From Candidatus Aenigmatarchaeota archaeon (GTDB lineage: Archaea > Aenigmatarchaeota > Aenigmatarchaeia > Aenigmatarchaeales > Aenigmatarchaeaceae): DNA of 64,000 bases. Numbering within the stretch: the first letter of the stretch is position 1; each line of letters starts with the position of its first letter. The stretch spans positions 1 through 64,000 of the forward strand of contig JAZDKZ010000001.1 of the NCBI GenBank assembly GCA_043802485.1, read 5' to 3'. This document shows, one piece after another, positions 18,458 to 62,568 of the stretch. The translations under genes were made by a program, and so were the position numbers. Under the pieces are notes generated by a model, which saw nothing but the letters and a program-made list of their open reading frames with translations, had not been told where the DNA came from and did not search any database.

Positions 18458-18568
18458 AGCCCCGTCGTCTAGCGGTCAAGGATGCAAGGCTTTGGAGTTG
18501 TCTCTAAAGAACTGATTAAAGGATGACGAAGTAACCTTGAGACACCAGTTCGAATCTGGTCGGGGCTA
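18458..18568 (+). tRNA. tRNA-Gln(TTG) with 38-nt intron at 37/38 (18496-18533)
   Basis: A1-U72 acceptor AGCCCCG/CGGGGCT, anticodon stem CAAGG/CCTTG, BHB helix CTTT/GAAG. Confidence 0.93.
18496..18533 (+). ncRNA. Putative intronic half box C/D guide (D'-C') for U34 of tRNA-Gln
   Basis: Guide CTCTAAAG 18502-18509, box CTGA 18512-18515, box ATGACGA 18523-18529. Confidence 0.6.
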
Positions 18569-49331: not shown

Positions 49332-49486
49332 GCCGACGTGGCAGAACCAGGTTAATGCGCTAGACTTGAGGACATATGATTAGATGGCTTGACTCCGAAT
49401 GCGGCGAAATGAGGAATGATAGGCGAAATGATGTCTAGAAATCTAGTGCCCGCAAGGGCTTGCAGGTTCAAATCCTGCCGTCGGCG
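49332..49486 (+). tRNA. tRNA-Ser(TGA) with 70-nt intron at 37/38 (49371-49440)
   Basis: GCCGACG/CGTCGGC acceptor, CTAGA/TCTAG anticodon stem, GCCC-GCAA-GGGC variable arm, G73. Confidence 0.92.
49371..49440 (+). ncRNA. Intron-encoded double-guide box C/D sRNA
   Basis: C ATGATTA 49376-82, 12-nt guide, D' CCGA 49395-98, C' ATGAGGA 49409-15, 12-nt guide, D ATGA 49428-31, terminal stem GACA/TGTC. Confidence 0.8.
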
Positions 49487-54541: not shown

Positions 54542-54673
54542 GCGGAGGTAGCCAAGTCTGGTCAAAGGCGCAGGACTTAAGATAACTTAAGTTTTGATGC
54601 AAGTTCGTCTTGCGGTGATAAGAAATCCTGTCTCTTAGTGGGTTCGTCGGTTCAAATCCGGCCCTCCGCACCA
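54542..54673 (+). tRNA. tRNA-Leu(TAA) with 43-nt intron at 37/38 (54582-54624), CCA encoded
   Basis: GCGGAGG/CCTCCGC, CAGGA/TCCTG anticodon stem, long variable arm, BHB helix CTTA/TAAG. Confidence 0.93.
54582..54624 (+). ncRNA. Putative intronic half box C/D guide (D'-C') for U34 of tRNA-Leu
   Basis: Guide CTTAAGTT 54586-93, box TTGA 54594-97, hairpin GCAAG/CTTGC, box GTGATAA 54615-21. Confidence 0.62.
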
Positions 54674-62292: not shown

Positions 62293-62568
62293 TGCAGAGG
62301 AACGCCTTCAGTGGGTGCCAAGAAAACCATGAAGCTAACCCCATCAATCTTCTCCACTTCGCGACCCTATAAACGTCACTACCATAACTTAGTAGTGCTC
62401 GGTTCCCCGCCTCCTACGGTTCGCTATAACAGTAACTCTACAGGACGAAGCTTCTCAGTCGATCGACAGGACCTCACGGATCCTTGACATCGCCTTTAGG
62501 CTTCGATTGCGCCATGAACCGGATTTGCGCTTATAGGGAACCGGTAGCTCCCCAATCTATCCCCTGCA
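62293..62568 (-). ncRNA. ffs: SRP RNA (7S)
   Basis: Terminal helix GCAGGGGA/UUCCUCUGC; Alu domain with kissing loops ACCGG/CCGGU; helix 8 GUAG-GAGG-CGG-GGAA-CCG-AGCA-CUAC; TTTAAATA 22 nt upstream; T-run downstream. Confidence 0.88.

Follow-up and report, generated by a model that had tools for sequence, protein, structure and literature searches.

The closest described system is the C/D guide in the intron of euryarchaeal pre-tRNA-Trp (in H. volcanii, and as sR50 in Pyrococcus), which directs formation of Cm34 and Um39 (PMC7994747, PMC2584109, PMC4090602). According to the available text of these papers, this guide is bipartite (C/D plus C′/D′), 65–103 nt long, confined to tRNA-Trp, has two targets and favours action in trans in vitro. 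Reviews name the Trp intron as the only tRNA-intron guide, as far as the same three sources could be consulted (PMC7994747, PMC4090602, PMC2584109). The 66-nt intron of Nanoarchaeum equitans tRNA-Met has been listed as a putative C/D RNA (PMC3491384, available in part), with neither a target nor a half-guide geometry described in the available text; it is a possible relative of the introns considered below. Position 34 is also the target of free-standing sRNAs: Pyrococcus sR49, the H. volcanii Met guide and the Sulfolobus Gln(UUG) U34 guide (PMC2584109, PMC7668247, PMC7994747). In the accessible portions of these sources they share with the introns considered below the target position and overlapping tRNAs (Met, Leu CAA/UAA, Trp, Gln) but, unlike them, are separately encoded, bipartite and trans-acting. 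Um34/s2Um34 is reported on Gln(UUG) of S. acidocaldarius in the available text of PMC7668247.

Single-guide RNAs are described as engineered halfmers (MMG4, MMG5; delta-CD mutants) and as human C/D-like short snoRNAs (PMC9670817, PMC7229835). In the accessible parts of both papers such RNAs have one guide 5′ of box D, one K-turn or K-loop, the +5 rule and a duplex of ∼10 bp or less, features also seen in the introns described here; they are synthetic or poorly conserved and have separate substrates. Halfmers with a K-loop and L7Ae gave efficient and strictly specific guiding in vitro, according to the same passages; an earlier view cited in PMC7229835 was that both motifs are needed. The text available from PMC7229835 treats the existence and function of halfmers in cells as an open question.

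We analysed a tRNA-Gln(UUG) gene of an Aenigmatarchaeota genome (769 kb, 89% complete); it lies in the window, i.e. the whole 64,000-nt stretch of DNA under analysis (Table 1). Like the pre-tRNA-Trp guide in its available descriptions, the element in this gene sits in a canonical intron, is predicted to act on its own tRNA at position 34, shares part of its pairing with intron sequence and would act before splicing. The differences are that the Aenigmatarchaeota intron guides have one box pair, are mostly 28–48 nt long, have one target, occur in eight anticodon types and, unlike the pre-tRNA-Trp guide, are hairpinned straight onto the anticodon. In comparison with halfmer constructs and human short snoRNAs they occur naturally, are conserved across the phylum as sampled and are part of the same molecule as their substrate. 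The intron would work like the pre-tRNA-Trp guide in a monopartite form that is apparently undescribed: in the literature searched, with some primary papers and most subscription journals outside its coverage, we found no account of tRNA-intron half-guides or of Aenigmatarchaeota introns as guides.

Table 1. Coordinates in the window of the tRNA-Gln(UUG) half-guide and of two further intron elements
Feature	Position	Strand	Basis or details
tRNA-Gln(UUG) gene with canonical 37/38 intron	18458..18568	+	Rfam RF00005, 49.1 bits
Anticodon stem	CAAGG 18485-89 / CCUUG 18535-39	+	Sequence
BHB intron, 38 nt	18496..18533	+	Sequence parse, structure
Target strand, C32-G37 plus intron +1/+2; predicted methylated base U34 = 18492	18490..18497	+	Pair probabilities 0.72-1.0
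Antisense guide, -10 to -3 from box D; A18507 = -5, pairs with U34	18502..18509	+	Sequence, conservation
Box D/D′, CUGA	18512..18515	+	Invariant GA in alignment, offset histograms
K-loop from box D to box C, 7 nt	18516..18522	+	Sequence
Box C/C′, AUGACGA, overlapping outer and central BHB helices	18523..18529	+	D1:C6 covariation, structure
3′ strand of central BHB helix and 3′ bulge	18528..18534	+	GAAG pairs with C32-U35; splice site after 18533
Sister element, tRNA-Leu(UAA) intron	54582..54624	+	Guide 54586-91, box D 54594-97, box C 54615-21, U34 = 54578
tRNA-Ser(UGA) intron, two 12-nt guides	Box C 49376-82, D′ 49395-98, C′ 49409-15, D 49428-31		

By sequence parse the gene has an A1-U72 first pair and the anticodon UUG, with C32, U34, G37 and A38 at 18490, 18492, 18495 and 18534; genes for uS12, uS7 and EF-2 follow directly downstream (Pfam on neighbours). 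ARAGORN missed the gene without intron search and mis-called it Lys with intron search. The intron has the canonical archaeal BHB form: a 37/38 site, two 3-nt bulges and a 4-bp central helix with all four pairs formed (18490–93 with 18528–31), next to an outer helix of 6 bp (18497–502 with 18522–27). In the alternative pairing, guide and target form 8 bp with one G·U (G36·U18505); the 4-nt loop UUGU (18498–501) joins the two strands, and AA (18510–11) is the 2-nt spacer to box D. All coordinates that an earlier note had assigned to this half-guide (guide, single G·U, AA, CUGA, 7-nt loop and AUGACGA) proved correct, as did its placement of the register on U34, A18507 being the fifth base before CUGA. 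Two points are atypical: position −2 is unpaired with G31, and position 5 of box C is a C.

The element is a halfmer with only one D…C pair. No RUGA was found 5′ of the guide within the intron in any of the 147 arms defined below; as the second box pair is absent, the intron guides do not fit the bipartite C/D sRNA form. Rfam sRNA families, including those of the Trp-intron guides, gave no match at gathering threshold, and RF00005 was the sole match at the locus.

Box motifs are short, and a short A/U-rich intron could match them by chance. We shuffled the Gln intron 200,000 times with the last 6 nt fixed, counting as success a guide of ≥5 bp together with an in-register GA and an RUGA further downstream. 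This pattern appeared in 441 of the 200,000 shuffles (0.22% per intron) and a guide of ≥8 bp in 11; moreover, the arrangement recurs in six introns of this genome and across the phylum. We regard the likelihood of a chance match as practically negligible.

The other introns with the N34 register in this genome are those of Leu(UAA), Glu(UUC), Met(CAU), Trp(CCA) and Arg(UCU). Parse and register test both confirmed that the Leu(UAA) intron, which the earlier note had singled out, shares the register of the Gln intron. The note had also argued that this recurrence in introns of unrelated sequence spoke against chance. The counts do refute chance; independence of the introns is not established by their sequences, for the Trp gene used as query hit the Glu gene (83%) along 47 nt of the 3′ part of the intron and exon 2, and intron cassettes of different tRNAs may share ancestry. 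The Lys(UUU) intron of this genome has a guide and no GA in the N34 register; the register is absent from seven further canonical introns, those for Arg(CCU), Arg(GCG), Gly(CCC), Thr(CGU), Thr(GGU), Tyr(GUA) and Ser(UGA).

Over all fetched loci that passed the parser filter given below, the register was present in Gln UUG (78/78), Trp (16/16), Met (13/15), Arg UCU (11/11), Leu CAA (8/8), Leu UAA (8/9), Glu UUC (8/9) and Lys UUU (5/8), and was absent from Lys CUU, Gln CUG and Arg CCU (0/4) and from introns of nine other anticodons (0/18). The eight positive types (Gln UUG, Glu UUC, Lys UUU, Arg UCU, Leu UAA/CAA, Met CAU, Trp CCA) read purine-ending codons of split boxes. A ribose methyl at position 34 tightens wobble reading in split boxes. 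Such tightening by Cm34 is supported in the available text of PMC7668247. In Met introns of the half-guide family the central BHB helix is poor (2/4 pairs).

For covariation analysis we applied a parser to all fetched loci (score ≥32.5, intron <120 nt, BHB ≥2/4, metagenome controls excluded), which gave 147 distinct arms with eight anticodons in the N34-register set. Of these, 69 Gln and 8 Trp arms (among the matches listed) came from patterns that require the motif and carry no weight as frequency evidence. The motif-requiring Gln pattern needs a CAAG D-loop and its counts are 'at least' values, with other archaeal phyla covered by sampling; the similarity searches used intron-containing queries. 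Since the arm sequences are related, the shuffle comparisons that follow overstate significance, and how many different pair types occur is more telling.

The −5 base is the Watson–Crick partner of N34 in 147/147 arms (110 A:U, 37 G:C), as expected for a fixed target with −5 on N34 and a duplex of about −2 to −11. The guide follows each anticodon, including a G opposite C33 in 6 Glu(UUC) arms, and GA stands at offset 5 after the partner of C32 in 147 of 154 guide introns from all fetched loci. Positions D1 and C6 are Watson–Crick in 134/147 arms (U-A 76, C-G 40, A-U 12, G-C 6) against a shuffle mean of 60.4 and maximum of 79; the phylum Gln sample, described below, gave 68/77 against a mean of 35.6 and maximum of 49, so that the count exceeds all 2000 shuffles in both sets. 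With the GA of box D and the (RU)GA of box C, this pairing would make up the tandem G·A stem of the class. Covariation of D2:C5 is weak (75/147 against a shuffle value of 56.8, maximum 70), with 38 U·U, which is the consensus pair there. The control pairs D1:C7 and D1:C1 are at or under the shuffle values, and D2:C6 is marginal (84 against 70.0, maximum 83). The box D-to-box C loop varies from 3 to 42 nt, the long ones having a canonical stem.

Covariation also marks the extent of the guide duplex. Position −2 pairs with N31 in 114/147 arms (shuffle 49.2), whereas −1 is Watson–Crick with N30, an invariant G, in 2/147 (shuffle 2.0). Position −9 fits intron +1 in 97/119 arms (shuffle 58.9) and mature 38 in 78; −10 fits intron +2 in 60/96 (shuffle 25.0) and mature 39 in 26. 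In arms with +1 other than A, −9 follows +1 in 26/40 and is U in only 7. The covariation runs from −2 to −10 with no signal at −11. Because −9 and −10 covary with intron +1/+2 and −11 is silent, the target appears to be the unspliced tRNA, and the duplex ∼10 bp at most; a duplex of guide positions 2–11 is reported for an archaeal RNP structure in the accessible part of PMC9670817. The suggestion that modification would precede splicing, made in the earlier note on account of the target spanning the exon–intron junction, thus gains support, with covariation following the intron bases rather than mature 38/39.

The searches above partly favoured the motif; a sample blind to the intron was obtained with an exon-only tRNA-Gln pattern in 221 genomes labelled Aenigmatarchaeota. 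The pattern matched in 108 genomes and not in the other 113; it does not fit Gln genes that have further introns in the D or T arm, and the assemblies are incomplete. The 108 matches comprised 16 intron-less genes, one that is not a tRNA by eye and 91 intron-bearing Gln(UUG) genes. The strict script passed 74/91 introns and inspection by eye 88/91: three have A opposite C32, eight have two G·U pairs in the guide, missed or misplaced by the script with the register kept by eye, and three have one box base off. The remaining 3/91 are without a half-guide. In the search for relatives, each of the 18 different arms of Gln(UUG) introns (30 loci) passed, the intron-containing query favouring similar introns.

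The earlier note had named a lack of conserved CUGA/RUGA boxes in orthologous introns as a refutation. Boxes and register both persist there, with GA at offset +5 from the partner of C32 in 79/83 distinct guide-filtered arms of the phylum sample, so the reading survives. What is conserved along with the GA register is NNGA, not the CUGA that the note had expected (CUGA 32/147, UUGA 71/147). Taken together, the element is real, conserved and probably functional, and the Gln intron very likely guides methylation of position 34.

One could argue that the pattern is a non-functional relic of intron origin, left by an inverted duplication of the anticodon arm or by a cassette copied between tRNA genes. 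The inter-box loops are indeed alike among tRNAs of the half-guide family (as in the Trp query matching the Glu gene), and the intron is absent from some lineages. Yet compensatory changes in the K-turn stem, at −2/N31 and between guide and intron occur across many families, though the loop ranges so widely in length. As a natural control we used an exon-only metagenome scan with at least 87 different introns of Gln(UUG), most of which belong to other archaeal types judged by tRNA body and G+C. Among the matches listed, 1/87 passed and 79/87 were without any guide; the single passing intron is identical to that of one of the relatives (G004). Ordinary BHB introns of Gln(UUG) thus lack the pattern, and the half-guide is not a by-product of BHB introns, as nearly all controls are without it. 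The covariation largely refutes a relic, which we consider very improbable.

The 16 intron-less genes among the 107 phylum Gln(UUG) genes are all from genomes that encode fibrillarin; therefore, some lineages dispense with the Gln intron. Loss of fibrillarin was considered as the cause of intron-less lineages and rejected, all 19 genomes of the group lacking the half-guide encoding the protein. Among 38 genomes searched for U34 trans-guide patterns (19 without the half-guide, 19 with it) counts were similar in both groups; 16 pattern loci inspected, all from the lacking group, looked coding-like by eye.

The present genome encodes fibrillarin, Nop5, L7Ae and EndA (EndA domain at C7:89475), and fibrillarin was found in 79/80 Aenigmatarchaeota genomes tested (80 of the 107 with a Gln gene match). 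A search of the present genome, 89% complete, gave no SpoU-family methyltransferase; FtsJ matches were short and partial. The Nop5 and fibrillarin genes adjoin tRNA-Leu(CAA) and tRNA-Glu(UUC) (G000:C5:7781-11953); fibrillarin is near Glu(UUC) in several relatives of the same family too.

We computed fold energies with the cloverleaf fixed, in a model that leaves out L7Ae, tertiary contacts and growth temperature. For the Gln pre-tRNA the guide fold has −30.0 kcal/mol versus −26.6 for the BHB fold (3.4 less stable); predicted pair probabilities are 0.72–1.0 for guide pairs and 0.0 for BHB pairs, the latter counting against the mechanism proposed below. In 142/147 arms the guide fold has the lower energy. 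At least three of the first six nt of box C are paired in the BHB fold in 120/147; since box C sits within the BHB helices, the guide and BHB states are mutually exclusive.

In the mechanism that we propose, the anticodon loop of the nascent pre-tRNA would hairpin with the intron guide, outcompeting the in silico less stable BHB. Box D, loop and box C would form a K-loop or K-turn, a structure to which the covariation points, bind L7Ae and dock a Nop5–fibrillarin dimer. By the +5 rule, fibrillarin would then 2′-O-methylate the base paired to −5, i.e. U34. After release the arm may refold to the BHB, burying box C, and EndA would excise the intron; the mature tRNA would bear a 2′-O-methyl U34 derivative. 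That the intron is a monopartite (halfmer) C/D guide acting in cis on its own unspliced pre-tRNA, before splicing, seems to us a reasonably probable reading of the sequences.

The same folding data could instead reflect an L7Ae-controlled switch that delays or regulates splicing, no methylation being involved. The overlap of box C with the BHB helices and the lower energy of the guide fold would suit such a switch; it has no need of the fixed 2-nt spacer that sets −5 on N34, and it leaves the restriction to split-box NNR anticodons unexplained. We consider it quite unlikely. Methylation could also be guided in trans, with the excised (probably circular) intron or a second pre-tRNA directing Um34 on an unspliced pre-tRNA. 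The H. volcanii pre-tRNA-Trp intron favoured trans in vitro in the available text of PMC2584109 and PMC7994747, and pairing with intron +1/+2 fits any unspliced target molecule. Against this, the guide is a few bases from its target in all arms (loop of 3–5 nt in 120/147), it is predicted to be sequestered in cis by the pair probabilities given above, and 5–9 bp are weak for intermolecular pairing. Action in trans is thus unlikely, less so than a switch.

Should the cis-acting guide hold, it would offer a concrete function for archaeal tRNA introns beyond the Trp case, and many natural sequences with which to approach the question, raised in the available text of PMC7229835, of whether cells contain working halfmer guides. 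It would also show how a minimal-genome archaeon, in which SpoU was not detected, could still mark its split-box wobble bases. The introns suggest a single-guide unit that might be a building block of bipartite sRNAs or their reduced form. The whole Gln element is a 111-nt transcript, suited to existing reconstituted archaeal RNPs.

One could speculate further, and we do so tentatively, that the phylum has natural self-acting halfmer guides, one per split-box tRNA, with a methylation-before-splicing checkpoint and a target that can be retuned through the spacer. If there is a checkpoint, the mutual exclusion of hairpin/K-loop and BHB would enforce wobble methylation before splicing; if the target is retunable, a 4-nt spacer in Lys introns would move it to C32.

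Several observations concern individual tRNAs. In two Lys introns (L211, L279) the script found a spacer of 4 nt, which would set −5 opposite C32. Lys(UUU) of this genome (L038, G000:C6:52325-52447) and L011 have a C32 register only if UA replaces GA; Lys introns of other relatives keep the N34 register. Three Gln introns from one genus (L566–L568 in G148, G176 and G222) have a guide A mismatched to C32, and in another family (L549 in G138) a guide A opposite position 32 matches U32; the A could hint at C32 editing or at plain tolerance.

U33 is normally invariant. The tRNA-Glu(UUC) of this genome (G000:C5:11839-11953, minus; L037), which ARAGORN mis-calls Arg, has C at position 33, and both the BHB helix and the guide have a compensating G, here and in several relatives. 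The tRNA-Leu(CAA) gene (G000:C5:11408-11494) is intron-less in this genome; a half-guide intron on C34 is present in Leu(CAA) of relatives (L047, L059, L060, L063-L065, L069, L202), pointing to recent loss or gain of the intron.

The tRNA-Ser(UGA) intron (window 49371-49440) looks like a complete bipartite C/D sRNA with a terminal stem; its guides are not complementary to the anticodon of this tRNA, and a search of the 23S gene gave no convincing target for them. The D arm or T loop of Gln tRNA genes often harbours further introns, beside or replacing the canonical intron (G000:C4:44142-44246, minus, and many other Gln genes). The window also contains an archaeal SRP RNA at 62294-62567 (minus; Rfam RF01857).
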